Positions 16,191-46,992 of a DNA stretch of 64,000 nucleotides are shown one piece after another. The position numbers were made by a program, and so were the translations under genes. A model generated the notes under the pieces. It did not search any database. It was given only the letters and a program-made list of their open reading frames with translations, and had not been told where the DNA came from. Each line of letters begins with the position of its first letter. The stretch's first letter is position 1. Source of the stretch: Candidatus Saccharimonadales bacterium (GTDB lineage Bacteria > Patescibacteriota > Saccharimonadia > Saccharimonadales > UBA4665); NCBI GenBank assembly GCA_035247965.1, contig DATFHW010000025.1, positions 510,551 through 574,550 of the forward strand, written 5' to 3'.

Positions 16191-16784
16191 ATGCAGCCCG
16201 AGATCGAGGGATCCGAGCGTTCCGCTTCGGCCAAAAACCCCAAGCTCCCGCGTTACGACCTCATTCGGTCGTGGCCGCAGTCGATCATCAGTGCCGGCGC
16301 CGTAGTGCTGCTCGCGCTGTACATGGCCGTCGTCGGACTCACGTCCTTCGAAGCCCTGAAGCGCGTACTCACCTGCGCCACCCCCATCGACGCGTCCACG
16401 GACGTCTACGGCGACTCGTACTACAACTACGGGTACCGCTACGACGACATCGGCAACAGCAAGGTCTGCGTTCCCGCAAACCTGCACGCCAGCTGGGTCC
16501 CGGCCTCGCTCGCCGCGCTGTCGATGACCGCCCTGGCAGTTCTGGCGCTGATCCTGGTCGGCTACCTGCTGCACATGACGTACCAGTACGTCTACAACCT
16601 GCAGAACGCCCCGGTGACGCCCTCCGACGACGACCGTCGCTTGTGGGGCAGCGCCACCCGCAGCCTGTTCGTGATCCCCGACTTCGTCAAGGTCGCCACC
16701 AAGGGCCTGACCGGCGCCGGCGGCATCTTCATGCTCGCGGCCGTCACGTTCTACTGCGTCATCTACCTCGTCGCCCTCGGCTAA
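16191..16784 (+). CDS. block A membrane protein (197 aa, about 3 TM)
   Basis: Internal ATG of track ORF 16131..16784, preceded by GAGAGGAAAA. G/C-rich third codon positions. Hydrophobic helices. Confidence 0.7.
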   Translation: MQPEIEGSERSASAKNPKLPRYDLIRSWPQSIISAGAVVLLALYMAVVGLTSFEALKRVLTCATPIDASTDVYGDSYYNYGYRYDDIGNSKVCVPANLHASWVPASLAALSMTALAVLALILVGYLLHMTYQYVYNLQNAPVTPSDDDRRLWGSATRSLFVIPDFVKVATKGLTGAGGIFMLAAVTFYCVIYLVALG

Positions 16785-16793
16785 GGAGCCACG

Positions 16794-17015
16794 ATGCTCA
16801 AGAAAGCATTGGCCCAGGTCTGTGCGACGCTGCTCATGGTCGCGATCAAGCTCGCACCGCTGCAGTTCGTGCACGCAATCAAGCAGCTCGAACCGCCACC
16901 CCAGGGCACCATGGACCCGAAGCTGGAAGCCAAGCTGCGTCGCCATATCCGCGACGACAATCCGCTGCGGGAGGCCGTCGACCGACGCGTTTTCCCGTTC
17001 GGTCCCCGTTGGTAG
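16794..17015 (+). CDS. block A small protein (73 aa) with a hydrophobic N-terminus
   Basis: AAGGAG lies 6 nt upstream of the ATG. Confidence 0.65.
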   Translation: MLKKALAQVCATLLMVAIKLAPLQFVHAIKQLEPPPQGTMDPKLEAKLRRHIRDDNPLREAVDRRVFPFGPRW

Positions 17016-17038
17016 TCACACCGAAAGGAAGTACCACC

Positions 17039-17332
17039 ATGAACACCCCCGACCCCACCGGCAAGTTCGGCAAGGCCACGCGAATCGTCCGAGACCACCC
17101 GGTGTTCACCGGACTCGCGCTGTTCACTGGCGTTGTTGTCGTCACCCGAACCGTGGTTCGCCGCTCCAACAAGTTCGACATCGTCGAGCTGCCGGCCACC
17201 GACGTTCCCGAGCAGAGCGCCCCCAAGACCGTCAAGGTCGACCTGGGAGACCTCGGCACCATCGAGGAGCCCGCAGATGGCCGGCGCGGCACGGACGGCG
17301 ACGACCCGATCTCCAAGGAGATCCGTCCCTGA
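17039..17332 (+). CDS. block A single-TM protein (97 aa) with an acidic tail
   Basis: ATG preceded by CCGAAAGGAAG. The sequence lies in the frame of track ORF 16133..17332. MNTPDPTGKFGKATRIVRDHPVFTGLALFTGVVVV... Confidence 0.65.
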   Translation: MNTPDPTGKFGKATRIVRDHPVFTGLALFTGVVVVTRTVVRRSNKFDIVELPATDVPEQSAPKTVKVDLGDLGTIEEPADGRRGTDGDDPISKEIRP

Positions 17333-17805
17333 TGAGACCCAGTCCTCAACCGCTCAGCCCGTTCTTCCGGCAGTACCAGCAAGAGCTGGACGCCTGGATG
17401 CGCGAGCAGGGCACCCTACGACGCAACGCGCGTCTGCGCATGGGCATCATCTGCCTGGGCGCGGTCGCATATGCGCTGCTGACGCACTGGTGTCACACGG
17501 CGGTCCGTTCCACGTTCTGCGCCCAGTCCACAATCACCTGCGCGGAGTTCAACAACCCCCGCAACCACTGGCACTGGAGCTACTGGGGAGTCGCCGCAAT
17601 GTTGGCACTCGCCATCATCGGTGCCGGCGCCCTCGCCAGCATGACCGCCATCTGGTTCTCGTCGCTCAGCCGTCGGCTGCACATCCGTGGCCCGGCCACC
17701 AAGACCGAGAACCGTCTGACGTTCATCCGTTGGTACTGCGTGATCACCACGGTGACCCTGGGCTACGGCCTGTTCTGGTACATGATTGTCCACCTCGGGA
17801 GGTAA
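17332..17805 (+). CDS. block A membrane protein (157 aa, about 4 TM)
   Basis: Its ATG overlaps the upstream TGA (TGATG coupling). MRPSPQPLSPFF... lies in the frame of track ORF 16822..17805. Confidence 0.65.
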   Translation: MRPSPQPLSPFFRQYQQELDAWMREQGTLRRNARLRMGIICLGAVAYALLTHWCHTAVRSTFCAQSTITCAEFNNPRNHWHWSYWGVAAMLALAIIGAGALASMTAIWFSSLSRRLHIRGPATKTENRLTFIRWYCVITTVTLGYGLFWYMIVHLGR

Positions 17806-17823
17806 CCCTGTAAAACTCGGATC

Positions 17824-17897
17824 AACCGGGATGACCTGCCACAAGAAGCGTGCCTGACGGCGCGACCAACTTCTTCGCAGTGTTCATCCCGGTTTTT
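17824..17897 (+). terminator. long-loop hairpin AACCGGGATGA/TCATCCCGGTT followed by a T5 run
   Basis: 11-bp complementary arms at 17824-17834 and 17884-17894, followed by TTTTT. Confidence 0.45.
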
Positions 17898-17916
17898 CCA
17901 TATAAAAAATGCTAAC

Positions 17917-17945
17917 TTGAATATATGCGCTATTTATGGCATAGT
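17917..17945 (+). promoter_or_regulatory. promoter TTGAAT-N17-CATAGT
   Basis: AT-rich patch inside the GC-rich block, just upstream of 18002..18310. Confidence 0.35.
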
Positions 17946-18001
17946 ACACATGTTCAAGTTTGCACCTGTTTTGACCCGCGACTCACGAAAGCGAGACATC
18001 C

Positions 18002-18310
18002 ATGGCACAGAAACAGTCTGGCCCGGTCCGCACATTCATCACCGGGGGCCTTCTGGGGCTCGGCCTGTACGGCATCGGCGCGTACGCCATGAGCAGGGCT
18101 ATGCCGCACGGCAACGCTCAGAAGCAGATCTTTCACGGGGGTCCCCTTGCCGCCTCCCCCACCTCCGTGGTCATGATGTTTCTCAGCCTGGTGGTACTGG
18201 CGGCGTTGTACGCCTTCGACTCCGAGGGCCGAAGCGCCAAGGCTACGCTCCTGAAAGTCGCTGCCAGCTGGGTGATCGTATGGGCCACCATCGGCGCCCT
18301 TATCTTCTAG
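18002..18310 (+). CDS. block A membrane protein (102 aa, 3 TM)
   Basis: Track ORF. GC3-rich. Hydrophobic helices. Confidence 0.7.
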   Translation: MAQKQSGPVRTFITGGLLGLGLYGIGAYAMSRAMPHGNAQKQIFHGGPLAASPTSVVMMFLSLVVLAALYAFDSEGRSAKATLLKVAASWVIVWATIGALIF

Positions 18311-20343: not shown

Positions 20344-20394
20344 GTCTTATATTGTAACAGAGGTACGCGGATTGTAAAACCGGGTGTTGTTTTA

Positions 20395-20423
20395 TTGACA
20401 AAGTACGGTTTTTGTACTATGGT
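20395..20423 (+). promoter_or_regulatory. promoter TTGACA-N17-TATGGT for GC-rich block B
   Basis: TTGACA at 20395-20400 and TATGGT at 20418-20423. It is divergent from the putative alaS promoter. Confidence 0.5.
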
Positions 20424-20515
20424 TATCGCATCGTCTTCATACGTGAGGAGGTGAACATTAATTGCAGAGCTGAGGCGAATAATCGTCTCGGTAGATTTCA
20501 ACCGAAAGGTGCCCA

Positions 20516-20668
20516 GTGTTTCACGGTGTAAGTACCGGAGACGTTGCTGTCATCTTCACGGCTGCCGTCATCGGTAGCTACCTCGGCAAGTATGCTCGGC
20601 CCAGGACGATCATTTTCGCAGCAATTGCGATAACAATCATCGGTGGGCTGGTCATGAAATACGTTTAG
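20516..20668 (+). CDS. block B 2-TM miniprotein (50 aa, GTG start; not in ORF track)
   Basis: MFHGVSTGDVAVIFTAAVIGSYLGKYARPRTIIFAAIAITIIGGLVMKYV. CCGAAAGG lies 7 nt upstream of the GTG. Confidence 0.55.
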   Translation: MFHGVSTGDVAVIFTAAVIGSYLGKYARPRTIIFAAIAITIIGGLVMKYV

Positions 20669-20680
20669 AAGGAAGGTGTC

Positions 20681-20842
20681 ATGGACCCCTACAAACTCTT
20701 GGTTGGCCTGTTGGTGGTGATCATCTTGGGCACTCTGCTCCTGATGATCATCAAGAAGGCCGGCAAGACCGTCGTGCTGTGCGCAATCGGCCTGGCCCTG
20801 ATCCTGGGACCGATGGCCTGCACCGCGCTCACCAAGCAGTAG
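20681..20842 (+). CDS. block B 2-TM miniprotein (53 aa; not in ORF track)
   Basis: MDPYKLLVGLLVVIILGTLLLMIIKKAGKTVVLCAIGLALILGPMACTALTKQ. GAAGGAAGG lies upstream. 49 of 54 codons end in G or C. Confidence 0.65.
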   Translation: MDPYKLLVGLLVVIILGTLLLMIIKKAGKTVVLCAIGLALILGPMACTALTKQ

Positions 20843-20856
20843 TCGAAGGAGTCCGA

Positions 20857-21009
20857 ATGGACAAAACGACACTGATCGTGGGCCTTATGGCCGCGATCAT
20901 CGGTGGTGGAATCGTCGCGAAGTTGGCTAGTAGAGGCTACCGTGCTGCTGCCATAACGATCATCGTTGTGAGTGTGCTCGCAGCCATCGCTGCCGACCTC
21001 GTGAAGTAA
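20857..21009 (+). CDS. block B 2-TM miniprotein (50 aa)
   Basis: MDKTTLIVGLMAAIIGGGIVAKLASRGYRAAAITIIVVSVLAAIAADLVK. Internal Met of track ORF 20779..21009, preceded by GAAGGAG. Confidence 0.65.
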   Translation: MDKTTLIVGLMAAIIGGGIVAKLASRGYRAAAITIIVVSVLAAIAADLVK

Positions 21010-21029
21010 CCAACCGAAAGGAGTGGCGC

Positions 21030-21194
21030 ATGCCGCTTCCCCAGAAAGAAACCCGTGGTGGCTGGTGGTGGCTCCGTCTGCTGATGCTGGTGGCCTTCCT
21101 GGTCGCCTGCCTCATCGCATTCGGGTCGGACCTCATCAACGGCAACTCCAACGAGCCGCACCGCCCGCCGCACAGCACCTCGACCCACAAGTAG
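21030..21194 (+). CDS. block B single-TM miniprotein (54 aa; not in ORF track)
   Basis: MPLPQKETRGGWWWLRLLMLVAFLVACLIAFGSDLINGNSNEPHRPPHSTSTHK. CCGAAAGGAG lies upstream. Confidence 0.6.
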   Translation: MPLPQKETRGGWWWLRLLMLVAFLVACLIAFGSDLINGNSNEPHRPPHSTSTHK

Positions 21195-21201
21195 GAGCAC
21201 T

Positions 21202-21288
21202 ATGAAGCACAAGATTGCCGTGGCCCTGTTCATCCTCCTGGTTTTCGGAGGAATGACCTGGGCCTACCTGGGCCTCGAAGGCAAGTAG
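21202..21288 (+). CDS. block B single-TM micropeptide (28 aa; not in ORF track)
   Basis: MKHKIAVALFILLVFGGMTWAYLGLEGK. TAGGAG lies 5 nt upstream. Confidence 0.5.
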   Translation: MKHKIAVALFILLVFGGMTWAYLGLEGK

Positions 21289-21290
21289 CC

Positions 21291-21470
21291 GTGGAGGTCA
21301 CCGTACCGCTCGTGGGGCTTGGCGTAGCCGCCGTTGCCGTGGTCCTCGGACTGTCGCTGACGGCCCTGCCCAACCCCAAGGTGAGCCTGCTGGGCCGCCG
21401 CATCGCTACGTTCGTGACGCTTGTGAGCGTTGCGGTCGTGCTGCTGTATGTGGCGGTTCATCACAACTAG
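21291..21470 (+). CDS. block B 2-TM miniprotein (59 aa, GTG start; not in ORF track)
   Basis: MEVTVPLVGLGVAAVAVVLGLSLTALPNPKVSLLGRRIATFVTLVSVAVVLLYVAVHHN. It starts 2 nt after the upstream stop. Confidence 0.5.
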   Translation: MEVTVPLVGLGVAAVAVVLGLSLTALPNPKVSLLGRRIATFVTLVSVAVVLLYVAVHHN

Positions 21471-21483
21471 GAAGAAGGTGCTC

Positions 21484-21693
21484 ATGAGTGCTCTGGCACT
21501 CAGACTCAGTGCAGACACGGCAACCACCCTGGCGGTTATCGCCGCCATCGGCAGCCTGCTGATGTGCGCCCTGGGGATCGCCCTGGCCGCCTCGCGTAAA
21601 ACCGAGGTCAAGCGGCGTGGCAAGATCATCATCACGTTCCTCGTGGTGGCCTGGATCGGGTTCTTCCTGATCTGGAAGGCGCTCCATGAGTGA
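21484..21693 (+). CDS. block B 2-TM miniprotein (69 aa)
   Basis: Internal Met of track ORF 21430..21693, preceded by GGAAGAAGG. MSALALRLSADTATTLAVIAAIGSLLMCALGIALAASRK... Confidence 0.65.
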   Translation: MSALALRLSADTATTLAVIAAIGSLLMCALGIALAASRKTEVKRRGKIIITFLVVAWIGFFLIWKALHE

Positions 21694-21728
21694 GCTCGTG
21701 GTAGCCACCTGAACAACCGGTTGCAGGT

Positions 21729-21761
21729 CCGGCGTCATTCGCCTAAAAACGAGGACGCCGG
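21729..21761 (+). terminator. GC-rich hairpin CCGGCGTC/GACGCCGG with no U-tract
   Basis: 8-bp perfect stem between two sub-arrays of block B. Confidence 0.35.
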
Positions 21762-21785
21762 TCTGCCGCATAGAAAGTAACAGAC

Positions 21786-21983
21786 GTGGAAACATTCATT
21801 TCCCTGGCCGCAACCGGACAGAACGACAACACCCTGGGTGCTGCCGCGGTCGCGCTCGTTGTCGCCCTCGTCTTCGTGCTGGCCGGTGCATTCGCCCCGT
21901 TCAGCAAGGCTGGAAGGCTCAAGCTGATCGGTCTCGGCGCACTGACCTGCGTCGCCGCGATCGCCCTGATCTGGGTGTCCTAG
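21786..21983 (+). CDS. block B 2-TM paralog 1 (65 aa, GTG start)
   Basis: Track ORF. AGAFAPFSKAGRLKLIGLGAL matches AGFAAPFSGKTRVCLALIGVV of paralog 4. Confidence 0.65.
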   Translation: METFISLAATGQNDNTLGAAAVALVVALVFVLAGAFAPFSKAGRLKLIGLGALTCVAAIALIWVS

Positions 21984-21993
21984 AGAGGAAAAC

Positions 21994-22200
21994 ATGCACA
22001 CGCTCGTCACACTGGCACAGGCTGGTTCGGACAGCTTTCACACGATGGTGGGCGCGATCGCTCTGGCGATTGTGCTCTGCATCTGTGGAGCCGCCTTCTG
22101 GATCCACCGAAAGGCCGGGCAGGCTACGCCGAAATCGATCGGTCTCGCAGTTCTGGGACTGGCGATCATGGGCGTGGCGCTCGTTCTGATGATCATCTAG
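21994..22200 (+). CDS. block B 2-TM paralog 2 (68 aa)
   Basis: Track ORF. RBS GAGAGGAAAA. Confidence 0.7.
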   Translation: MHTLVTLAQAGSDSFHTMVGAIALAIVLCICGAAFWIHRKAGQATPKSIGLAVLGLAIMGVALVLMII

Positions 22201-22208
22201 GGAGGAAC

Positions 22209-22424
22209 ATGAACGTCGCACAAACCCTCGCAGCCGCAAGTAACATGACCCCCACGTCGTGGGTCGGCCTTCTGGTCGCCTTCATTGGCGTGGTAGTCAT
22301 GTGCTTCAACGGCCTGCGTGCGCAGATCACCGGTAAACCGAGCCTCAAGCTCTGGGTGATCGGCGCAATCCTGGTCGTCGGCGGCATCGTGCTCGCAGCC
22401 CAGACAGGCATTCACTCGACCTGA
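22209..22424 (+). CDS. block B 2-TM paralog 3 (71 aa)
   Basis: Track ORF. RBS GGGAGGAA. Confidence 0.7.
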   Translation: MNVAQTLAAASNMTPTSWVGLLVAFIGVVVMCFNGLRAQITGKPSLKLWVIGAILVVGGIVLAAQTGIHST

Positions 22425-22436
22425 GAGGAAAAAGGA

Positions 22437-22625
22437 ATGCTCGAAAAATTGGCCGCAGCGGATCTGAACAACGCGGTCTTTCCCCCGGCCCTTTTTGGGG
22501 TCGTCGCCCTCGCCTTCATCACGGCCGGCTTCGCCGCTCCGTTCAGCGGAAAGACACGCGTCTGCCTGGCCCTCATCGGCGTGGTGGCCGCTGTGATCTG
22601 CTTCCGTCTGATCACAAAGTCCTAG
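22437..22625 (+). CDS. block B 2-TM paralog 4 (62 aa)
   Basis: Track ORF. RBS GAGAGGAAAAAGGA. Confidence 0.7.
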   Translation: MLEKLAAADLNNAVFPPALFGVVALAFITAGFAAPFSGKTRVCLALIGVVAAVICFRLITKS

Positions 22626-22664
22626 GAAAGCGTGTACGCGCTTCGGCCAACCGAGAGGAAAAGG

Positions 22665-22895
22665 ATGCAACAAACGCTAGCTGTAACACCCGGTGAAAGC
22701 CTGCAGGGCATGGCGCTGGTCGTTGGCTACTTCGCCACCGCCGGCTTCCTGGCCCTTACAGCCTACTGCCTGCACGGGACGTTCATGCGCCCGGGCAGCT
22801 TGGGCAAACGAGCCACCAGGTTCCTGGTCGCTGTTCTGTCGATTGTGGCCATGGCGTTCATCGTCATGCACACGGTACCGAGGAGAAATCAATGA
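22665..22895 (+). CDS. block B 2-TM paralog 5 (76 aa)
   Basis: Internal Met (MQQTLAV) of track ORF 22632..22895, preceded by GAGAGGAAAAGG. Confidence 0.65.
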   Translation: MQQTLAVTPGESLQGMALVVGYFATAGFLALTAYCLHGTFMRPGSLGKRATRFLVAVLSIVAMAFIVMHTVPRRNQ

Positions 22896-23107
22896 AGGAA
22901 GCGCTCATCATCGCGGCCGCCCAGCAGACGACGTCTGTGGGTGAGCACAAGGCCGAGCTCATCGGGATGGCCATCGGTTTCATCCTGACCATCGCCGGAG
23001 TCTGGCGAAACGCCAACAACCAAAGCGACAAGAACAAGGGCGGTTTCCTCGTCGGCCTGGGCCTCGTGATCGTCGTCGGGAGCGGGATCATCCTGCTGTA
23101 CTCATAG
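22892..23107 (+). CDS. block B 2-TM paralog 6 (71 aa)
   Basis: Track ORF. ATGA overlap with the upstream gene. RBS GAGGAGAAA. Confidence 0.7.
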   Translation: MKEALIIAAAQQTTSVGEHKAELIGMAIGFILTIAGVWRNANNQSDKNKGGFLVGLGLVIVVGSGIILLYS

Positions 23108-23160
23108 TAGGCGCCGCGACCTAAGTCGCTCTGCAATTCTGAACAACCCGCACGAAGACG

Positions 23161-23212
23161 GCCTCCGGGCTGGCACCCGCCAGCAACCTGCCGTTCCCCG
23201 GCATCCGGAGGC
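23161..23212 (+). terminator. nested GC-rich hairpin GCCTCCGG...CCGGAGGC with no U-tract
   Basis: Outer 8-bp stem enclosing an inner GCTGGC-accc-GCCAGC stem. It follows the six-paralog array. Confidence 0.4.
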
Positions 23213-23314
23213 ACGTCGTGTAAACATATGGTTGAGCGCCCGCGCTCCCATCACTGTTTGCACGACTTTTTCATACTTATTTATTTTTTACGAACATCAT
23301 ACACATTACATACG

Positions 23315-23343
23315 TTGACATTGCATGCTCGCGGGCGTACACT
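23315..23343 (+). promoter_or_regulatory. promoter TTGACA-N17-TACACT
   Basis: Consensus -35 at 23315-23320 and TACACT at 23338-23343, within an AT-rich patch. Confidence 0.55.
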
Positions 23344-23382
23344 GTCCACGTCTGTAAAAAACGACGACCCCAAGGGGGAAAC

Positions 23383-23535
23383 ATGAGCAAGTCCAAGCAC
23401 GCTCGCGGTCGCTGGGACGGTTGCATTGTGCCGGCCGTTCTGCTGACTGTCGCCTTGGCGGCTGGGATCTACGTCTTCCACAGTGAGCTCGGGACGTTCT
23501 TTGTCAATCTGGTGCAGCAGCTCGTAGGACGCTAA
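23383..23535 (+). CDS. basic-N-terminus single-TM miniprotein (50 aa; not in ORF track)
   Basis: MSKSKHARGRWDGCIVPAVLLTVALAAGIYVFHSELGTFFVNLVQQLVGR. AAGGGGGAA lies upstream. Confidence 0.6.
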   Translation: MSKSKHARGRWDGCIVPAVLLTVALAAGIYVFHSELGTFFVNLVQQLVGR

Positions 23536-23765
23536 TGTCCAACGAACACAAGCACCGCAAGGGCAAACAGCCCGATACCTACGCCGCGGCTAGGAAACGT
23601 GTGCGCCGAGCGGACTGCCGCCGTCGCTGCCATGAACGGTGCGAGTGCGTACGCGACGCGACTGCCTCTGCCGCCCGCGGCTGCTTCAGTGGCTCTACCG
23701 TAATGATCGTGGCGGTTTTACTGGCTGCTGTGGTCGCTCTCGCAGCGATTACCGGCAAGCTCTAG
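23535..23765 (+). CDS. basic, Cys-rich N-terminus with a C-terminal TM anchor (76 aa)
   Basis: Track ORF. TAATG stop/start overlap with the upstream gene. MSNEHKHRKGKQ... ending in VMIVAVLLAAVVALAAITGKL. Confidence 0.65.
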   Translation: MSNEHKHRKGKQPDTYAAARKRVRRADCRRRCHERCECVRDATASAARGCFSGSTVMIVAVLLAAVVALAAITGKL

Positions 23766-23941
23766 CTCCACCGCTCTACCCGCCTTCTGTGGTGGCCACC
23801 GTGAGCAATTAAACTCGGTGGCCACCAATGGGCCGTTTTACAGACATGGTCGTGCAGGATTGCACGAAAACAGCTTGCATTACCGCTTCCGCGGCTCTTT
23901 TTGTTTTCCTTTCTGCACGACCTACACACATCATGAGTATT

Positions 23942-23970
23942 ATTGACAACGCTTATCCCCATGTGTACAC
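23942..23970 (+). promoter_or_regulatory. promoter TTGACA-N17-TACACT (second copy)
   Basis: TTGACA at 23942-23947 and TACACT at 23965-23970. Confidence 0.55.
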
Positions 23971-24018
23971 TGGTGTACGTCCATTTGTTTGTTCATTCAT
24001 GCACTACCGGAGGCCCTT

Positions 24019-24153
24019 ATGGGGACCCACGTCAAAACGCGCGCACCCAAGGCAGCCAAGTCGTCACCCACGGGTGGCTTCGGACGAAAGTTCCTGCTGT
24101 TGATCGTCGTCGCCGGGCTCATCGCCTGGGGCATCACGTCGATCGGTCACTGA
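24019..24153 (+). CDS. basic-N-terminus tail-anchored miniprotein (44 aa; not in ORF track)
   Basis: MGTHVKTRAPKAAKSSPTGGFGRKFLLLIVVAGLIAWGITSIGH. CCGGAGG lies upstream. Confidence 0.6.
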   Translation: MGTHVKTRAPKAAKSSPTGGFGRKFLLLIVVAGLIAWGITSIGH

Positions 24154-24401
24154 CCACACGCTCCTCCAGCACGCCTTCCCAGCCTGATTAGAAAAAGCAG
24201 TGAGCCTCCCGCTGGGCAGCCCGCACCACAAGTGCCCTGCCCCGGGAGGATCCTGTAACACCCCATACCCGCCCCTTTGCTATGAACCCGGACAACCCCC
24301 ACAAACCTTTGTTGAGGTCGCACTCGCGACATCCGAAGGCACAATCGTGCACGCAACCCTACCCTACCAACTTTTACGTGCACGATTTTTTCCTATTTAC
24401 A

Positions 24402-24430
24402 TTGACAATACCTAATATCGGTGATATAAC
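24402..24430 (+). promoter_or_regulatory. promoter TTGACA-N17-TATAAC
   Basis: TTGACA at 24402-24407 and TATAAC at 24425-24430. Confidence 0.5.
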
Positions 24431-24489
24431 GTACGCAGTTCGTCTGAACATAGTACGTTGAAAATTTAGTTGTATTGGAGGTGAGATCT

Positions 24490-24630
24490 TTGCAGCTCGC
24501 TTCAGAGGGCTTCGGCAGTGCCGGGCCTATTTTTTGTTACATCGGAATGGTCCTATTCGTCCTATGGTGGTGGCGTGGACGTGGTCCTCGACCTCCCAGG
24601 GGTGGCGGCCGTTCCGATATCGTCCACTAG
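24490..24630 (+). CDS. single-TM miniprotein with a WWW and Arg/Gly/Pro-rich tail (46 aa, TTG start; not in ORF track)
   Basis: MQLASEGFGSAGPIFCYIGMVLFVLWWWRGRGPRPPRGGGRSDIVH. GGAGGTGA lies 6 nt upstream of the TTG. Confidence 0.4.
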   Translation: MQLASEGFGSAGPIFCYIGMVLFVLWWWRGRGPRPPRGGGRSDIVH

Positions 24631-24720
24631 GACGGCGACACTGACGTGAGCTGTTCACACGCACAATCCGTGGACTTTCCCCGTCCATTCAAACACCGCC
24701 GAGTAAAACGGAGGTAACAC

Positions 24721-25044
24721 ATGAGTGCATCCGCGCTCATCACGGCCACCCAGCTGGCCAGTTCGTCCGGCACCAGCCTTGCGGCGGCAGCCAGCCCCGA
24801 CGTGCAGACCGCAATCCTGGTGGGTTGTGGCATCGTGCTCGGGGCCGGTCTGCTCATCAAGCTGGTGATGCCCAAGATCCCGCTCTGGCTGATCATGTTG
24901 GTCGCCTGCGTGATCTGCGCCGGCGTCAGCTTCATGGGCCTCTACGCCGGCAACCTGCCGTTCAAGTCGATCGCCGGCGCCCTCCTGGTGCTGTCGATCC
25001 TCACCTTCCTGGCGGCCAAGCTCGTCAAGGGCTCGCGGCACTAG
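24721..25044 (+). CDS. block B membrane protein (107 aa, 3 TM), MSASAL family
   Basis: Track ORF. RBS ACGGAGGTAAC. Confidence 0.7.
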   Translation: MSASALITATQLASSSGTSLAAAASPDVQTAILVGCGIVLGAGLLIKLVMPKIPLWLIMLVACVICAGVSFMGLYAGNLPFKSIAGALLVLSILTFLAAKLVKGSRH

Positions 25045-25086
25045 GACACCGTCCTGTCCGACTCACCGTAAAGGGGATCTCGGTTC

Positions 25087-25182
25087 ATGCCGACTTCCTG
25101 TGGGATGACCCCCGGCCAGACGGTAATCGCAGTCGCGTTCGTCCTTCTGGCCGGTGTGGTCGTGATCGCAGGGCTTAGCTAG
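25087..25182 (+). CDS. CGMTPG-motif single-TM micropeptide (31 aa; not in ORF track)
   Basis: MPTSCGMTPGQTVIAVAFVLLAGVVVIAGLS. Homologous to 25469..25585. Confidence 0.5.
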   Translation: MPTSCGMTPGQTVIAVAFVLLAGVVVIAGLS

Positions 25183-25210
25183 ATCCGAGTCCATCAACGG
25201 AGGTAACCAT

Positions 25211-25456
25211 ATGGGTGCATCCGCACTCGTACCCCTCGCAAGCATGCTGCAGAAGGAGCACCCCGTTCCCGGGATGTTCCTCGTGGCAGTCTTCGGCGTG
25301 GGGTTCGTCGTCTCGGCGATCGCGGTCGCGAGGTACGGCAATAAGAAGGGCGCCGAGAAGGTACTGCTCGTCAGCACCATCGTCGGTGCCCTGGGCGGCG
25401 GAGCAGCTGTCTGGATCATGATCATGCTGCTCAGCGCCATACGCATGCAGGGATGA
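25211..25456 (+). CDS. block B membrane protein (81 aa, 2 TM), MGASAL family
   Basis: Track ORF. Its RBS and first codons are near-identical to those of 24721 (ACGGAGGTAAC..ATGnGTGCATCCGC). Confidence 0.7.
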   Translation: MGASALVPLASMLQKEHPVPGMFLVAVFGVGFVVSAIAVARYGNKKGAEKVLLVSTIVGALGGGAAVWIMIMLLSAIRMQG

Positions 25457-25468
25457 GGGCCTGAATCC

Positions 25469-25585
25469 GTGGGAAGCTTCTGTGGAATGACCCCGGGCGA
25501 GCTGATGTTCGCAGGCGTCTTCGTCCTTCTGTTCGGAATTGTGTACGCCATCGGGCGACGCAACAAGAACAAGGAGGGCGACTGA
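25469..25585 (+). CDS. CGMTPG-motif single-TM micropeptide (38 aa, GTG start; not in ORF track)
   Basis: MGSFCGMTPGELMFAGVFVLLFGIVYAIGRRNKNKEGD. Confidence 0.5.
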   Translation: MGSFCGMTPGELMFAGVFVLLFGIVYAIGRRNKNKEGD

Positions 25586-25644
25586 TGCTCACCGCACCAC
25601 TCGCCGGGGTCAGCTCCGCTACCGACACGTCCGCCAACAAGTAG
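25585..25644 (+). CDS. possible 19-aa peptide (not hydrophobic)
   Basis: MLTAPLAGVSSATDTSANK. TGATG coupling, with AAGGAGGG 6 nt upstream. It may be a remnant. Confidence 0.25.
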   Translation: MLTAPLAGVSSATDTSANK

Positions 25645-25663
25645 ACCAACGGAGGTATCTACT

Positions 25664-25900
25664 GTGCAACACCTCGCTGTTGCGGCATTCGCTGCCGGCA
25701 ACACCGGAAACCTCGTCTCCGCCCAGATGCTGGTGGGAGAGTTCGTTGGGATATTCATCATCGCGACGATCTACACCATCGTCAAGGCAAAGCGGAAGAA
25801 CACCAGGAATCCGGTCGCGTTCGGCATCACCATGGGCGCCGTCACCGGCATCCTCGCCGTCCTGCTCACGGTCTTCCTGGGCACCTACTTTCGGCTGTAA
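25664..25900 (+). CDS. block B 2-TM protein (78 aa, GTG start)
   Basis: Track ORF. RBS ACGGAGGTA. Confidence 0.65.
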   Translation: MQHLAVAAFAAGNTGNLVSAQMLVGEFVGIFIIATIYTIVKAKRKNTRNPVAFGITMGAVTGILAVLLTVFLGTYFRL

Positions 25901-25910
25901 GGAGGGGTAA

Positions 25911-26114
25911 ATGAGCTCCGCGAGCTCTGTTCTGGAAACGGGCGTCACCATCGGCGGCACGCACATCAACGGCCTGCTTCTGATCGCAGCGATCATCGTG
26001 GTCGTGGCGATTGTGGCGTTTGCGCTGCTGAAAACCACCAAGGCAGTGATCGTCTCGGTGGCAACGGCCGCCATCATCGCCGGTGCAACCGCACACGGAT
26101 GGTGGTGGCACTGA
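25911..26114 (+). CDS. block B 2-TM protein (67 aa)
   Basis: Track ORF. RBS AAGGAGGGG. Confidence 0.7.
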   Translation: MSSASSVLETGVTIGGTHINGLLLIAAIIVVVAIVAFALLKTTKAVIVSVATAAIIAGATAHGWWWH

Positions 26115-26203
26115 TGTCCAGCGTCAGCCCTGGTGCCCTTGGCTGGGCAGTGGCCCTGATCGTCGTGGGCGTCATCGTCGTCATACGACGAGGCCGCCGG
26201 TGA
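26114..26203 (+). CDS. single-TM micropeptide with an RRGRR tail (29 aa; not in ORF track)
   Basis: MSSVSPGALGWAVALIVVGVIVVIRRGRR. TGATG coupling with the upstream gene. Confidence 0.5.
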   Translation: MSSVSPGALGWAVALIVVGVIVVIRRGRR

Positions 26204-26225
26204 CCAAATCAACGGGGGACTTCCG

Positions 26226-26303
26226 ATGAAGTGGGTCGGCGTGCTGATCGTACTCATCGGAATTGTCGCGATGTTCTACGGAACTCGTGGCACACGAAGG
26301 TAA
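26226..26303 (+). CDS. single-TM micropeptide (25 aa; not in ORF track)
   Basis: MKWVGVLIVLIGIVAMFYGTRGTRR. GGGGGA lies upstream. Confidence 0.45.
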   Translation: MKWVGVLIVLIGIVAMFYGTRGTRR

Positions 26304-26355
26304 TCGCAGATAACGGCAGCAGATCGCTCGCCGTTCAACGGAGGGAAACCCGCAC

Positions 26356-26499
26356 ATGAGTCACCTCGTCCGCGCCATCAACCTGGCGGCCGTCGACAAC
26401 CGCGCGTTCAAGCTGGAGGACCACCCGGTCTTCTGCATCGTGTCGATCGTCGTGTTCGCCGCCGGCGTCATCTACCTGTGGCGCAAGAAGAGCTCGTAA
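26356..26499 (+). CDS. tail-anchored miniprotein (47 aa; not in ORF track)
   Basis: MSHLVRAINLAAVDNRAFKLEDHPVFCIVSIVVFAAGVIYLWRKKSS. ACGGAGGGAAA lies upstream. Confidence 0.6.
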   Translation: MSHLVRAINLAAVDNRAFKLEDHPVFCIVSIVVFAAGVIYLWRKKSS

Positions 26500-26508
26500 G
26501 GGGGCATC

Positions 26509-26649
26509 ATGCACATCACACAGGCAGCGCTGGAGTACCTGGCGTACACGCCGAGCAACAAGCACTTCGGCATGAACAACACCACCTTCTTCACGGTGGT
26601 GTTCGGCGGAATCGGTCTGGTCATCTTCCTTCTCACGAAGAAGAAGTAG
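26509..26649 (+). CDS. tail-anchored miniprotein (46 aa; not in ORF track)
   Basis: MHITQAALEYLAYTPSNKHFGMNNTTFFTVVFGGIGLVIFLLTKKK. AAGGGGG lies upstream. Same architecture as 26356. Confidence 0.6.
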   Translation: MHITQAALEYLAYTPSNKHFGMNNTTFFTVVFGGIGLVIFLLTKKK

Positions 26650-26747
26650 TTCTTGGCCGTCGTCGGACTTCTTCTGATCAAGCGGCGTGGCGACTAGCCT
26701 CGACCGCACACTCCACCCACGCAACACCTCACGGAAGGAACACGCGC

Positions 26748-26906
26748 ATGTCGCGTCTCACCGTCAGCGCACAGACCCTCGCGGGCGACGTCGCCGCCAA
26801 GTCCGGACACGGGATCCCCGTCGGCTGGATCGGCTTCGGCGCCGTCATGATCGTCCTGCTGGTCATCGGTGTCCGCTGGGCCCGCGGTCGCAACAACAAG
26901 GGCTGA
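26748..26906 (+). CDS. single-TM miniprotein (52 aa)
   Basis: MSRLTVSAQTLAGDVAAKSGHGIPVGWIGFGAVMIVLLVIGVRWARGRNNKG. Internal Met of track ORF 26478..26906, preceded by CGGAAGGAA. Confidence 0.6.
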   Translation: MSRLTVSAQTLAGDVAAKSGHGIPVGWIGFGAVMIVLLVIGVRWARGRNNKG

Positions 26907-26953
26907 CCAGCACTCAACGGGCAACTGCCCACTAACGAAGGGAGACCCCGGAC

Positions 26954-27454
26954 ATGTCCGGTCTCAACCCCGACATGGTCACCACGGCCGCCGACATCAA
27001 CTTCGGTGGTGACCAGGCGTTCCGGTCGCTGTACAGCGGCGTCGGCCTCACCGGTCTGCTGTTCTCGGCCGCGATCGTGTTCGTCTACCACTGGGCCAAG
27101 AGTCCGAAGTGGGGCATCGGCACCGGCGTGATCATCGTGTTCTTCACGAACTTCCTGATCACCGGGCTGCTCATCCCGCTCGCGCTCAGCTACAACACTG
27201 GCTCCCTCAACTTCATGGGCGCCAGCAAGTTCAAGGGCCTCCTGAACATGGCCGGCATCGGTCAGGCCGAGCAGCTCGGCACGTTCGTCATCTGCGTCGT
27301 GCTGGTGTTCCTGCTGGGGAAGAAGTTCAAGTGGGGGAAGGGAGCGCAGCTCGTCATGATCGTCGTGCTACCGCTGTTCTACCTCCACTGGTTCCGCCCC
27401 TTCTGGGAGTCCACCGGCATCGACCTCGGCAGCATGAACATCCCGTTCCTCTGA
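26954..27454 (+). CDS. block B polytopic membrane protein (166 aa, about 4 TM)
   Basis: Track ORF. RBS GAAGGGAGA. Confidence 0.75.
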   Translation: MSGLNPDMVTTAADINFGGDQAFRSLYSGVGLTGLLFSAAIVFVYHWAKSPKWGIGTGVIIVFFTNFLITGLLIPLALSYNTGSLNFMGASKFKGLLNMAGIGQAEQLGTFVICVVLVFLLGKKFKWGKGAQLVMIVVLPLFYLHWFRPFWESTGIDLGSMNIPFL

Positions 27455-29024: not shown

Positions 29025-29918
29025 TTACGAGCGAGAGGCGCGTTCCAAATGCTTGCGCAAAACCAGCAGTGCGTGCTTGCGGCCCAACCAAAACGAAACC
29101 AGTAGCAAAGGCAGCATGATCAGCGACGGCAGCCACAACACCTTGGTAATAATGGTGGTCGATCCGTTATTGGAGGCCGCGCTGTTACTGGACGACGTAA
29201 TTGCTCCGTTCGCCACCGCCACCACCTGCAGGTACGCCGTGAGTCCGTTTTTGTCAGTGGCCTTGATAATTACCGAGTATTCGCCAGCCGTATCGTACAC
29301 GTGCTGAATGTTAAATGTGCCTGGCAACTCCAAGCTCATTAGGGTGGTCGCCTTGTTATCACCCCAGTCAATACTTATAGCGTACGGCCCATTTCCGCCC
29401 GAAAGGCTGATCGGCCACGTGAGCGTTTCACCCGGATTCGCGCCACGACGAGCGTAGTCACTGGTTAGAATCAGCAACGCTGTACCGCTGGGGTTAAACT
29501 GATTGTCGTTGAATGTCACCCTTACCACATTAGAGTCGGGACTTGCCTGGTCGAGCGCATCATATTGGCGCACCACAAGATCGTTTTCGCCACTAAATAA
29601 GTCAATTTGAATGCTGTAACTGCCGTTCTGGCAGATAGCCGATCCCATAAAAACATTGTTGTCGAACACTTTTACCAACAGGCCGGTTTTACACAAACCC
29701 GAAACCGTAATCGGCACATTGGTAAATGTTTGGCCGTTCGTTGGCGTGGTGATAGTTGGTGGCGTTGAAGGAGCTGCGCTCGCAACCGCCCCTGTTAAAC
29801 CTGTTGCGTTATCTTGCGGGTTCGTGAGCGCTTGCGCCGAACCAGGCAGCAAGCAGAGTGCGAGCGCAGCAACAAGACTGCTCGTGATCCGCCCTAACTT
29901 CTGCATTGCTTGCTTCAT
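29025..29918 (-). CDS. secreted, C-terminally anchored surface protein with Ig-like and PKD-like domains
   Basis: Signal peptide ending in GSAQA. The segment ISIDWGDNKATT...HVYDTAGEYSVIIKATD looks like a PKD domain. C-terminal TM. Confidence 0.7.
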   Translation of the reverse strand: MKQAMQKLGRITSSLVAALALCLLPGSAQALTNPQDNATGLTGAVASAAPSTPPTITTPTNGQTFTNVPITVSGLCKTGLLVKVFDNNVFMGSAICQNGSYSIQIDLFSGENDLVVRQYDALDQASPDSNVVRVTFNDNQFNPSGTALLILTSDYARRGANPGETLTWPISLSGGNGPYAISIDWGDNKATTLMSLELPGTFNIQHVYDTAGEYSVIIKATDKNGLTAYLQVVAVANGAITSSSNSAASNNGSTTIITKVLWLPSLIMLPLLLVSFWLGRKHALLVLRKHLERASRS

Positions 29919-29960
29919 AGTTTTGTGAGCGAGCGCGCTGCAATGCGCGCTGCAACTTTG

Positions 29961-30983
29961 CTATTTCTTCTTTTTGGTTGATGTGCCCGTAGCCTTCTGG
30001 ACGATGCGGCGGTTGTACGACTTGATCATCTTTGGCAGAACCAGTACCGCAAAGGCGATCAGCGCCAAGATAACAACAACGGTAACAATAATTGGGATCG
30101 GCACAACGTAGAAGGTTTTGGTGGCGGTCAGCAGTTGACCCTTGTCGCCATAGCCCAAGTTTGCTTCAAGGGTATATTTACCGAACGACGTTGCTTTGGT
30201 ACTGATGTCGAACTCAAATCGGCGGATGCTATCTGGCAGAACGTTGCCGCGTGGTTGTGTGTTGTTGATTTCGTAGGTAGCAACTACCTTGCCGGATTTT
30301 TTGAGCTGAATCTTGCCGAATGGCTGCACTTGTACGTTACCGGTATTCTTGATGCGCACTGCACCAACCAGGTTTTTGCCGCTCGTAAAGAATGAGCCAA
30401 TAGATTCCTGATGTGTCTTGGAGTCTACCGTGCGAGTTTCCAGGCTTGCGATGCTGGCTTGCTGCACCAGATTACCAGGGACCGTTACCAGCACCAGCGA
30501 GCCAACACTTGCCGACAAACTAAGGTTCTTGCTGCTATCTACGTCGGCGGGCTCAAAACGAACCGCACCATAGTAGCCGCCAGCGTCAGCATCAGCAGGA
30601 ATGGTGATGGTCACTTTTACATCGTGCTGCTCGTTGGCCTTAATACTAAAGTCAGCCAGTGGTGACGCGTACTTTTTGAAACTGCGCAGTGGTGCCGCTT
30701 GATTGCCGTCGAGCAAAATATTTGGTGTGCCAGATTCGTCCTTGCCAGCTACAAAGTCGTTCACAACTGGATGCAGCGTAACTGTTTCCGACGACATGTT
30801 GGTCACGTACACATCAATAGTTTTACTGTTGCCAGGTTTAATTTCTAAATCGGTTCGCACCGGAGAAACACGAAGTGCGTTACCTGAACCGGCTGTTGCA
30901 GCCATGGCTTGAGCGCCACTGGCTGCAATAATTGCCAGCGCGCTTACGATGATCCCAAATGAGGCAAAAATTTTGCGTCGCAT
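29961..30983 (-). CDS. surface protein with a beta-sandwich N-domain and a C-terminal TM (DUF916/DUF3324-like architecture)
   Basis: Signal peptide, LRVSPVRTDLEIKPGNSKTIDVYVTNMS, a C-terminal TM and a basic tail. Confidence 0.55.
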   Translation of the reverse strand: MRRKIFASFGIIVSALAIIAASGAQAMAATAGSGNALRVSPVRTDLEIKPGNSKTIDVYVTNMSSETVTLHPVVNDFVAGKDESGTPNILLDGNQAAPLRSFKKYASPLADFSIKANEQHDVKVTITIPADADAGGYYGAVRFEPADVDSSKNLSLSASVGSLVLVTVPGNLVQQASIASLETRTVDSKTHQESIGSFFTSGKNLVGAVRIKNTGNVQVQPFGKIQLKKSGKVVATYEINNTQPRGNVLPDSIRRFEFDISTKATSFGKYTLEANLGYGDKGQLLTATKTFYVVPIPIIVTVVVILALIAFAVLVLPKMIKSYNRRIVQKATGTSTKKKK

Positions 30984-31030
30984 CTGATATTCCCTTTTTA
31001 AATTCTTATGTTAATCATACCACGAAAGCA

Positions 31031-32107
31031 CTAGAAGTTTGCCAGACAGACATAGGTTAGCGTTGTAGAATAGACACCCGGCGCTTCATCTTTGGTGATA
31101 TTCACAATATAACTCACCGTGTATTTTTTATAATCTTGCGCTTCCGTTGCTTGGGCAATCGACTGCCCACTTACAAATCTAAAATTATTTGGCGTGTTGT
31201 AGTTGGTAGTTACATGACCCGTGCCCGGTCCTACTGCGTCAGATCCAATCTTGGGCGTGGTATTAGCGCGCAGATTTATGCCGAACTGACTGGTGCCAAC
31301 CTTGGATGTTTGCCCCGTCATGGCCGGAATTTCATTGTTACCAGAGGTCATGGTGAGCCCACTGGCCGTAATGCTATAGCCGCTACCGGCATTTGTTGCT
31401 GCCAACAGTTGCGAACTACCGGTGCTCGTTACCGCAGAACTGAACTGGCCAAAATCTAACTGGTCACCAGATGCCGAGGAGCAGTCAAAGTTGATAATTG
31501 TGGTGCCACCGCAAAAGGTCAAATACGGCGGAACTTCGGTGCTGATCTGGTAATCAAGCCCAATAGGAAATGCCATGGCGCCGAAGTCCAAAGGCGTGCC
31601 AGTTGCGTCCGAGCTGGAATACGTGAACACCTTTAGGTAATACGACCCCATAGTAGTTGGGTTTACGATGTTGTCAAACGTAAAACTTACCGGTCCGGCA
31701 TTCGTGTTGCTGGGAGGCAGCTGCGTCATAATAATGTCGTTCACCGATGAGCTACCGGACTTCACAAAGCCCGCCGTGCCCGTCTGCGCCGTTAATATTG
31801 CGTTCAGGGCGTCAAAACCAAATGGCGCCACACAGGGGTCAATAATCAAAGCCGAGTTCGAGCAAAACTGAAACTCCATAGAACCAATGGCGCCACCCGT
31901 TGCCACGTTAAACGCCAATTTATAAGTAACGTTGTGGGCACCAGCTAACTCATTATTCATCTGCAGACTGCGCGATGTTAGCTGCGCGCCCAGCACCTGC
32001 GGTGCATTATATTGCGCCAGACTAATACATAAGCTGGAAACAATAAGGAGCCACAGTAGAATATGCGAGCGAGCCTTGCGCAAAACTAGCAGGCATTGCT
32101 GCACCAC
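31031..32107 (-). CDS. secreted beta-rich surface protein, paralog group
   Basis: Signal peptide, S/T/G-rich sequence, and a C-terminal APGVYSTTLTYVCLANF motif. Confidence 0.6.
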   Translation of the reverse strand: MVQQCLLVLRKARSHILLWLLIVSSLCISLAQYNAPQVLGAQLTSRSLQMNNELAGAHNVTYKLAFNVATGGAIGSMEFQFCSNSALIIDPCVAPFGFDALNAILTAQTGTAGFVKSGSSSVNDIIMTQLPPSNTNAGPVSFTFDNIVNPTTMGSYYLKVFTYSSSDATGTPLDFGAMAFPIGLDYQISTEVPPYLTFCGGTTIINFDCSSASGDQLDFGQFSSAVTSTGSSQLLAATNAGSGYSITASGLTMTSGNNEIPAMTGQTSKVGTSQFGINLRANTTPKIGSDAVGPGTGHVTTNYNTPNNFRFVSGQSIAQATEAQDYKKYTVSYIVNITKDEAPGVYSTTLTYVCLANF

Positions 32108-32123
32108 TGTAACTCCTTATGGC

Positions 32124-33215: not shown

Positions 33216-33326
33216 GGGAGGATTCTCCTTTTTTGATTTTTTTAGGAATGCACGGTTATATACGACAACTCTATCATGCTTACGCTAATTCCGCAACAAA
33301 AACCCGCACCCACTTTTCCACAGTTT

Positions 33327-39297: not shown

Positions 39298-39824
39298 GCC
39301 TGCTTGCCTCGCAACGATTCCAGCAATAATTCGGTATTTTGGGAAAATTGACTGCGCAAACTGAGGTCAAAAACTTTGTTGGTGGTGCGCACGACGCAAC
39401 CAGCCGCAATAGTCGGCTGCAAGCCAACCTCAAGCAAGGCTAGCGGGTCAATATTGGCGCGCAACCAGCCCACAATTTTAGCGCTAAAACTTGCCGACGG
39501 ATCAGCCGCAAAACTCATATGAATAACAGGGGCAGAGCGGTCAATTTCCTGCAAAAAGTCGCCTAAAGCTTTTCGGTCATTACCTTTCAGCAAATCCTTG
39601 CCATTTTCGCGGCCCAAAGCCTCAAGCATACGGCTGACGCGAGGCATCTCGAACTTGGTCTCACGCCTGATGGCCATCCCGCGCAAAAATTCGTCCAGAC
39701 TCTCTAGCTCCAAACGCAAACGACGCACCTCTACAATGCCAAAAATCAGCGTTGGCAAAACCAGTTGCACCGAAGAACCCGCGGTGGCCTTAGCCTTAGG
39801 CGCCATTGGTAATATCCTCCACAA
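39294..39824 (-). CDS. atpH: F-type ATP synthase delta (OSCP) subunit
   Basis: Positioned between atpF and atpA. Length is about 170 aa. The true start may be the Met at 39806. Confidence 0.7.
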
Positions 39825-40422: not shown

Positions 40423-40453
40423 TATATTTCCACCCCGCCTGTAAGCTCAAGCA

Positions 40454-46760: not shown

Positions 46761-46963
46761 GACAGGATCTCTTTCTCTCGCTTGAACGACAAAGCCGTTT
46801 CTCCAAACGTCGGAGAATGATGTGTGATTCTGTAACACACGGCTAAAGCGAGTACCCAATTCACCTCTGTTATAAGGTGCGCTCGGTACTCACTTTAAAC
46901 CGATGTTCTGTTTGTTAAGGCGGCAGTGGAAAATACCTATAAGTCTCTCCAAAGCCACGTAAT

Positions 46964-46992
46964 ATAATACCATAAATGCAACAAAAAAGCAA
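46964..46992 (-). promoter_or_regulatory. promoter TTGCTT-N17-TATTAT (minus strand)
   Basis: The plus strand shows ATAATA at 46964-46969 and AAGCAA at 46987-46992. A structured leader of about 190 nt follows. Confidence 0.45.

Follow-up and report, generated by a model that had tools for sequence, protein, structure and literature searches.

The 64,000-nt stretch analysed here (referred to below as the window) belongs to the genome of a Candidatus Saccharimonadales bacterium (NCBI GenBank assembly GCA_035247965.1, contig DATFHW010000025.1 of 809,595 bp, positions 510,551 to 574,550). Between alaS and mnmA it carries six adjacent small genes, p1 to p6, most of which belong, as profile comparisons indicate, to a clade-specific orphan family (family A) inside a larger island of genes for tiny membrane proteins. 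Taken as a whole, our reading is that these are real genes, that family A is an old tandem family peculiar to its clade and housed in the island, and that its products are oligomerising helical hairpins with both termini outside the cytoplasm and a role at the envelope. This reading is put forward tentatively, with a confidence that stops a little short of even.

Six small genes with a common layout

The open reading frames (ORFs) of p1 to p6 (Table 1) all lie where an earlier, sequence-only reading of the window had placed six ORFs with a layout of two transmembrane (TM) helices. In each protein, hydropathy rises to TM strength twice, with a loop rich in Lys and Arg between the two peaks, as that reading had described. 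The tight spacing that it reported (8–40 nt or overlap) is also borne out, with gaps of 10, 8, 12 and 39 nt in order, followed by a 4-nt ATGA overlap. An AGGAGG-type site is located 5–10 nt upstream of each p gene. In the called frames, the G+C content at third codon positions (GC3) is 0.73–0.88, against 0.38–0.48 at second positions (GC2). Orthologues in other genomes differ mainly by synonymous or conservative changes, with ratios of non-synonymous to synonymous divergence (dN/dS) of 0.23–0.73. Because every gene has a Shine-Dalgarno site, GC3 is far above GC2 and the orthologue dN/dS values are below 1, p1 to p6 are taken, on these sequence features, to be real genes. For p5, the longest ORF begins at a GTG codon at 22632; the Shine-Dalgarno site precedes the ATG at 22665 instead.

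Family relationships

All six genes had initially been described as tandem paralogues, with a direct sequence similarity quoted between stretches of p1 and p4. Pairwise similarity was judged here against a null in which residues were shuffled only inside 7-residue blocks, which preserves the hydropathy profile (500 shuffles). The p1-p4 alignment has a score of 72, reached by none of the 500 shuffles, and the two genes share 73% DNA identity over 48 nt, which confirms the quoted similarity. The scores of the p1-p2 and p3-p4 pairs are reached by four and five of the 500 shuffles, respectively, and none of the remaining 12 pairs within the window rises above the null. Similarity beyond hydrophobic composition, proposed as a check on the claim of paralogy, is thus visible in the window for these three pairs and not for the other 12. 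A leave-one-out hidden Markov model (HMM) built from the window proteins recovers p1 and p4 only, and the evidence for paralogy that the window itself offers is thin.

The five-gene family becomes visible only with the addition of relatives from four other Saccharibacteria genomes. Single-linkage clustering with phmmer (E < 1e-4) joins p1, p3, p4 and p6 with 13–14 proteins from these four genomes. The top-ranked non-member against the family HMM is p2 (21.0 bits, E 1.5e-4), whereas the best decoy among ~10,700 ORFs from 80 other Saccharibacteria loci reaches 16.5 bits. In hhalign comparisons, p2 aligns with family A over 62 columns at 78.8% probability (E 1.6e-5; reversed control 5.7%), and the p5 orthologue group aligns at 2.2% probability over five N-terminal columns only. 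A profile match, an N-terminal Ala-rich helix and two TM helices with a GxxxxxxG motif occur together in p1, p2, p3, p4 and p6, and this combination is lacking in p5. These comparisons place p1, p2, p3, p4 and p6 in one clade-restricted family. They point to a separate family for p5, which has in common with family A only its architecture and a similar N-terminal start. The description of tandem paralogues therefore stands for five of the genes and is not supported for p5.

Age of the duplications and distribution of the family

Comparison loci with the same alaS-island-mnmA arrangement were available from related genomes (L001, L082/L084, L086 and L088–L091). All of the mnmA loci nearest to that of the window among species representatives come from Saccharibacteria. 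The sole sequencing run containing DNA of the locus is a rhizosphere metagenome, and none of the RNA-seq runs contains it. Most of the p genes have orthologues in the related genomes. Those of p1 are L088_9793 (54% identity, dN/dS 0.30), L082_3890 and L086_4927, and those of p3 are L001_177 (47–48% identity, dN/dS 0.45), L082_4499, L086_5147 and L088_10197. The orthologue of p4 is P0016, which is L088_10001 (65% identity, dN/dS 0.40), p5 corresponds to P0007/L001_407 (70% identity, dN/dS 0.23) and L082_4722, and p6 corresponds to L001_634 (39–40% identity, dN/dS 0.59). No clear orthologue of p2 was found elsewhere. Alanyl-tRNA synthetase (AlaRS) identity among these genomes is 88–89%, and mnmA of the window and of L001 differ by a synonymous divergence (dS) of 1.76, which is saturated. 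Since positional orthologues occur in genomes as distant as this, the duplications are old.

Copy number and gene order have also changed. In L001, p4 is missing between the orthologues of p3 and p5, and in L088 the order is p1-p4-p3-p6. Family A has about five copies in the window, seven in L082, six in L088 and three in L086, so that the comparison of copy number suggested by the sequence-only reading gives a range of three to seven with differing gene order. The proteins share 25–70% identity between genomes whose MnmA sequences share 94%. These observations point to an old tandem duplication followed by copy gain, loss and rearrangement, with fast evolution under relaxed purifying selection.

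The duplication had originally been described as recent and as having included the ribosome-binding site (RBS). The string GAGAGGAAAA does precede three of the genes, as claimed. It occurs four times in the 64 kb against 0.11 expected, at 21983, 22423 and 22653 and also at 16172, where it precedes an unrelated 197-aa gene at 16191. In relatives, the ribosome sites are of the TAGGAGGA type, with the upstream stop codon embedded in the Shine-Dalgarno sequence. Duplication together with the RBS is not demonstrable, as only this 10-mer is common to the copies and their flanks do not align. Local duplication followed by diversification is supported for the five family A genes. A recent amplification of one gene together with its RBS, for which the 10-mer common to three copies and the stretch of p1/p4 DNA identity might speak, is highly improbable and is refuted by the orthologue data, given that paralogues are at most 41% identical (p1/p4 dS 0.92), that separate copies have orthologues in other species-level genomes, and that the 10-mer also precedes an unrelated gene and is unused in relatives.

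Neither a homologue nor a comparable array was found at 80 other Saccharibacteria mnmA loci. When 1.84 billion representative proteins were searched exhaustively with an HMM, only the window's own proteins and P0016 were returned, and the matches in word-indexed protein searches were close relatives in soil metagenomes only. Species-representative genomes scanned with the 166-aa protein encoded by the last gene of the island gave no match. The island appears from these searches to be restricted to one soil/rhizosphere clade of Saccharibacteria. Two family members of 66–71 aa, P0017 and P0024, carry the Joint Genome Institute (JGI) labels 'putative Mn2+ efflux pump MntP' and 'D-arabinose 1-dehydrogenase-like Zn-dependent alcohol dehydrogenase'; these are evidently automatic mislabels, because the proteins are too small.

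A probable 12-gene operon within the alaS-mnmA island

With six further genes upstream, p1 to p6 make up a run of 12 small genes (20516–23107), of which they are the distal half. A promoter-like site lies ahead of this run at 20395, and the next is only at 23315. The proteins of the proximal half, u1 to u6, are 50–69 aa long with one or two TM helices each, and have orthologues in L082, L086 and L088. With gaps of 8–12 nt or an overlap, a single upstream promoter-like site and a terminator-like element after p6, u1 to u6 and p1 to p6 appear to form one 12-gene operon, and the promoter-like site P1 is its likely start.

Table 1. Coordinates of the p genes and of associated features of the island (window numbering)
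Feature	Coordinates	Strand	Description
p1	21786–21983	+	65 aa, GTG start; family A, FAPFSKAGRLKL loop subtype
p2	21994–22200	+	68 aa; divergent family A member
p3	22209–22424	+	71 aa; family A
p4	22437–22625	+	62 aa; family A; closest paralogue is p1
p5	22665–22895	+	76 aa; hairpin architecture as in the others, separate family
p6	22892–23107	+	71 aa; family A; start overlaps p5 stop (ATGA)
Promoter-like site P1	20395–20423	+	TTGACA-17-TATGGT; in the divergent alaS/array intergenic region
u1	20516–20668	+	small membrane gene upstream of p1
u2	20681–20842	+	small membrane gene upstream of p1
u3	20857–21009	+	small membrane gene upstream of p1
u4	21030–21194	+	small membrane gene upstream of p1
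u5	21291–21470	+	small membrane gene upstream of p1
u6	21484–21693	+	small membrane gene upstream of p1
Structured RNA	23160–23272	+	~110 nt, directly 3′ of p6, at the 3′ end of the operon
P2 and AT-rich upstream block	23276–23345	+	TTGACA-17-TACACT; begins the next island transcription unit
Island remainder	23383–27454	+	~13 further small membrane genes in additional units
166-aa four-TM protein	26954–27454	+	last island gene

The array described at first, with its six genes, is only about a quarter of the object. The island as a whole spans 20516–27454 (~7 kb) and comprises ~25 small membrane-protein genes, all on the forward strand, flanked by alaS and mnmA on the reverse strand. Further promoter-like sites are present at 23943 and ~24397. 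Other paralogue families of the island are the u2/u3 type, the d5/d6 type and a family of single-TM proteins of ~50 aa; the d5/d6 type matches family A in hhalign at 86.6%. Homologues of the 166-aa protein are confined to the same clade, and the dN/dS of ~1 obtained for its gene is unreliable, as GC3 there is 0.94. The gene at 23535–23765 (+) encodes a 76-aa tail-anchored protein with a strongly basic, Cys/His-rich N-terminal half (CRRRCHERCECVRD), which might bind metal; an orthologue is present in L082.

A gene for a GGDEF-domain protein is found between the island and mnmA in L001 (5650–6456), L082 (10842–11630) and L086 (10779–11495), and is absent from that place in the window and in L088. 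Just past mnmA, five genes on the reverse strand (29025–34115) encode proteins of 260–360 aa, two of them with WxL-interacting peptidoglycan-binding, PKD or fn3 domains. Beyond them is a bactofilin-like gene (34167–35207), and the neighbourhood is rich in cell-surface functions. Further along, two reverse-strand ORFs without a Pfam match (39796–41299) occupy the places expected for the b and a subunits of ATP synthase, beside a delta-like ORF and the genes for alpha, gamma and beta, and no ORF of c-subunit size lies between those two. The gene for a type I restriction enzyme R subunit (61929–63998, −) is cut by the end of the window.

Conserved promoters and a structured RNA

The structured RNA downstream of p6 is 84–96% identical in five genomes, whereas the flanking proteins are 25–70% identical. 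It is predicted to consist of a three-way-junction domain and a long branched hairpin, followed by CUUUUUC, a terminator-like U-run. Its minimum free energy is −63 kcal/mol, with a z-score of −7.6 on the forward strand against −4.8 on the reverse strand. Across the alignment, 97.6% of the cells at its 41 pairs are paired, three pairs are compensatory, and the G-U variants fit the forward strand only. No Rfam family matches it at the gathering threshold or the E-value threshold. With a covariance model, a single strong copy is detected in each genome, and weakly similar elements precede the third promoter and follow the last gene. The element could be a terminator or 3′ untranslated region (UTR) element, or a riboregulator.

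Four promoter blocks (20344–20515, 23276–23345, 23885–23990 and 24375–24474) combine an AT-rich upstream part with hexamers of the TTGACA-17-TACACT type. Across the clade they are 76–99% identical, often above mnmA (82% DNA identity); the intergenic region 20344–20515 is 82–91% identical in L082, L086 and L088. At 84–99% identity, the promoter regions and the structured RNA of the island are far better conserved than its proteins.

Codon usage and origin of the island

Genes of the island prefer ATC, TTC, AAG, GAG, CTC and GTC, whereas housekeeping genes prefer ATT, TTT, AAA, GAA and TTG. The shares are 0.89 for ATC in the island versus 0.70 for ATT in housekeeping genes, 0.90 for TTC versus 0.76 for TTT, and 0.83 for AAG versus 0.62 for AAA. 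GC3 is 0.74–0.98 in the island and 0.42–0.62 in the rest of the genome. High GC3 also marks 16191–18310 (+), 46131–48663 (−) and 51544–52530 (−), and the class of genes with GC3 of 0.8–0.95 that these stretches form with the island encodes mostly hypothetical membrane proteins; 51544–52530 encodes a soluble 328-aa protein without a Pfam match. The syntenic arrays show the same excess (GC3 of 0.78 in L082 and 0.85 in L086), so the inverted codon usage of the island has persisted through saturating synonymous divergence.

Such usage, opposite to that of the genome and resembling that of actinobacteria while the ATP synthase genes keep the housekeeping pattern, would be expected if the island were foreign DNA from a high-GC donor, for example an actinobacterial host, and its small genes were cargo without a special role. 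That origin is unlikely. Among the 1.84 billion representative proteins there is no homologue beyond this Saccharibacteria clade, and plasmid and phage collections give no match. The island promoters are, moreover, under strong constraint. Even in genomes that have reached saturation at synonymous sites, the island keeps its place and an equal excess of GC3, and is therefore old, with no drift toward the composition of the genome.

Predicted topology and possible role

The consensus of family A begins with an Ala-rich N-terminal helix, M-x-x-L-A-x-L-x-A or, with more positions given, M-x-x-L-A-A-L-A-A-A-Q, and continues with a polar linker, a first TM helix with G-x6-G, a short basic loop and a second TM helix with G-x6-G. 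TM1 begins 13–24 residues after the start, the N-terminal tail is neutral or acidic, and the C-terminal tail has 0–7 residues. The loops of 24 family proteins contain 73 Lys/Arg against 13 Asp/Glu, and the N-terminal tails of the same proteins 18 against 26. An AlphaFold2 model of low confidence (predicted local distance difference test, pLDDT, 64.5) places helices at residues 3–12, 15–36 and 41–64. No signal peptide was found in the family proteins, and there is no in-frame upstream start for p2, p3, p4 or p6.

Under the positive-inside rule, loops rich in Lys and Arg are cytoplasmic, and the composition of the family loops thus predicts a cytoplasmic loop with both termini directed outward. 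Expression from an operon with a strong promoter would yield the p proteins together and at approximately constant ratios. Each would enter the membrane as an N-out/C-out helical hairpin whose basic loop stays in the cytoplasm, and since a signal peptide is absent, this insertion would follow the YidC type. The glycine faces may pack the proteins into homo- or hetero-oligomers in the cell membrane, with the conserved N-terminal helix turned toward the wall or the host-contact side. The most likely role would be a structural or interaction-related one at the envelope of this epibiont, comparable to that of VirB2-like pilin arrays though not implying membership among them. This functional part of our reading is doubtful, if possible, and clearly less secure than the reading as a whole.

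Several observations weigh against it. In alignments of orthologues, the best-conserved segment is the cytoplasmic loop (for example FAPFSKAGRLKL for the p1 type and HGTFMRPGSLGKRA for p5) and not the exposed tail, so the constrained interaction may be with lipid or on the cytoplasmic face of the membrane; loop conservation would be no less compatible with a function in the cytoplasm or facing the lipid than with one at the surface. A Foldseek search with the AlphaFold2 model gave PsbZ as the best match (E 1.5) and listed no pilin, the hairpin fold being too generic to discriminate between families. No characterised family similar to the p proteins was found in Pfam, NCBIfam, PHROGs or PDB sequences. 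Nor does the window hold a gene of a type IV secretion system (T4SS) or other machinery, and for that reason the case for a part in envelope assembly comes down to architecture and analogy.

Scans of the six p proteins, 10 other island proteins and 17 family members against Pfam, NCBIfam and PHROGs gave only sub-threshold, inconsistent matches. Neither viral contigs nor phage or plasmid records yielded a match, and there is no phage or plasmid gene in the window.

The turnover of the array might instead reflect conflict with competitors or with the actinobacterial host, the p proteins being immunity proteins against membrane-damaging toxins, or pore-forming, bacteriocin-like peptides. Conflict loci typically show tandem arrays in which paralogues arise and are lost, and protein evolution as fast as that seen here, several-fold above that of housekeeping proteins (25–70% versus 88–94% identity). 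The family is also restricted to one clade. The dN/dS values are nonetheless below 1, the island contains no toxin, transporter, leader-peptide processing or modification gene, and the proteins are not cationic amphipathic, have no double-glycine leader and lack the charged C-terminal tail of holins. We regard this explanation as rather improbable. Type I toxins of the Hok/Ldr/TisB kind (single TM, <60 aa, own promoter and an antisense RNA) were rejected, as the p proteins have two TM helices and 62–76 aa and are encoded in an operon with Shine-Dalgarno sites and spacing of 8–12 nt. Sub-threshold matches of p1 and p2 to TIGR01167 and an LAVTG model (E 0.02–0.09) raised the question of sortase substrates, which were also rejected: LAATG is present in p1 only, at the N-terminus with nothing upstream, whereas a sorting signal (LPXTG/LAXTG, TM and basic tail) is C-terminal, and its T-G is not conserved in the family.

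Significance

Attachment to actinobacterial hosts is the way of life of Saccharibacteria, and most of the envelope components that bring it about are small proteins without annotation. The locus offers an orphan family with a predicted topology and, between alaS and mnmA, a conserved chromosomal position for comparing copy number and gene order; its conserved promoters and structured RNA are further testable objects. The undecayed reversal of codon usage bears on the upkeep of accessory genes in reduced genomes. As first described, the locus would be a fairly ordinary block of hypothetical small membrane proteins; its moderate interest comes mainly from the maintained inversion of codon usage and the conserved, putatively regulatory RNA.

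A bolder proposal is that the island is an undescribed kind of envelope or host-interface module, in which ~25 tiny membrane proteins diversify while host-like codon usage, promoters and RNA are actively maintained, and in which the p family is a counterpart of pilin arrays, free of signal peptide and T4SS, that forms a surface or contact structure. This is speculative and quite improbable. In its extreme version, the genes may be tuned for expression in, or exchange with, a high-GC host.

Comparison with known systems

Small two-TM proteins are also found among class II holins and pinholins. Family A differs from class II holins in having no charged C-terminal cytoplasmic tail and no adjacent endolysin or phage context. 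With C-tails of 0–7 residues, the nearest CHAP/LysM gene 10 kb off on the other strand, and no PHROG match below E 0.03, a class II holin was rejected.

The c subunit of F/V-type ATPases is a two-TM hairpin of ~70 aa with its termini outside, a polar cytoplasmic loop, glycine packing and YidC-type insertion. Family A resembles it in size, hairpin form, predicted termini-out topology and polar loop, and in the glycine-based packing and YidC-type insertion proposed for it, but is located outside the ATP synthase operon (35.7–39.8 kb). An identity as ATP synthase c subunit was rejected, since the family alignments contain no GxGxGxG, the motif of TM1 in c subunits, and there is no Pfam ATP-synt_C match; the ion-binding carboxylate (Asp/Glu) of TM2 was inspected by eye only.

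Clusters of virB2 paralogues in Anaplasma and Bartonella consist of recognisable VirB2 homologues and are linked to a T4SS. As with family A, copies of a gene for a small hairpin envelope protein have multiplied in tandem and diverged there, in bacteria with an obligate association with a host, but neither homology nor T4SS linkage was found for family A.

The closest likeness in build would be to the pilins themselves, and the p proteins might be divergent VirB2/TrbC-type T4SS pilins, with the array supplying variant pilus subunits. They match mature conjugative pilins in size and layout, with a polar N-terminal tail, two hydrophobic helices and a short basic loop at a mature size of ~65–75 aa, and termini outside. 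Tandem VirB2-like arrays of 2–11 genes each are common in Saccharibacteria and other Patescibacteria, and their identity (mean 25%, maximum 54%) is like that seen here (bioRxiv 10.1101/2025.01.22.634366); the T4SS cluster of S. epibionticum also holds a pilin series (PMC10633639). Neither PF04956 nor PF18895 is matched by any of the 17 family members, even with the limit relaxed to E ≤ 10, and a PDB sequence-profile search at the same limit returned chance TM matches and no pilin. A signal peptide of the kind that pilins lose before assembly is absent, the ORFs of p2, p3, p4 and p6 cannot be extended upstream, and no VirB4, VirB6 or VirD4 gene was found among the large ORFs of the window or the called genes of the syntenic loci. 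Foldseek lists no pilin for the model, which has a pLDDT of 64.5 and a generic fold. True pilins are an improbable identity for these proteins. Because the pilin HMMs fail and a leader peptide and T4SS neighbours are absent, family A would be an analogue of the pilins and not a member.

As such an analogue, family A is comparable to the Saccharibacteria VirB2-like arrays in several respects. Both occur in the same phylum as tandem genes for small two-helix hydrophobic proteins, with ~25–40% identity within an array and variable copy number, and both have a predicted termini-out hairpin with a basic loop. Family A differs in matching neither pilin profile, in lacking a Sec signal peptide and in not standing beside virB4 or any other T4SS gene in 64 kb. 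It differs further in being part of a far larger island of other tiny membrane proteins and in its distinctive N-terminal helix of the LAALAAAQ type.

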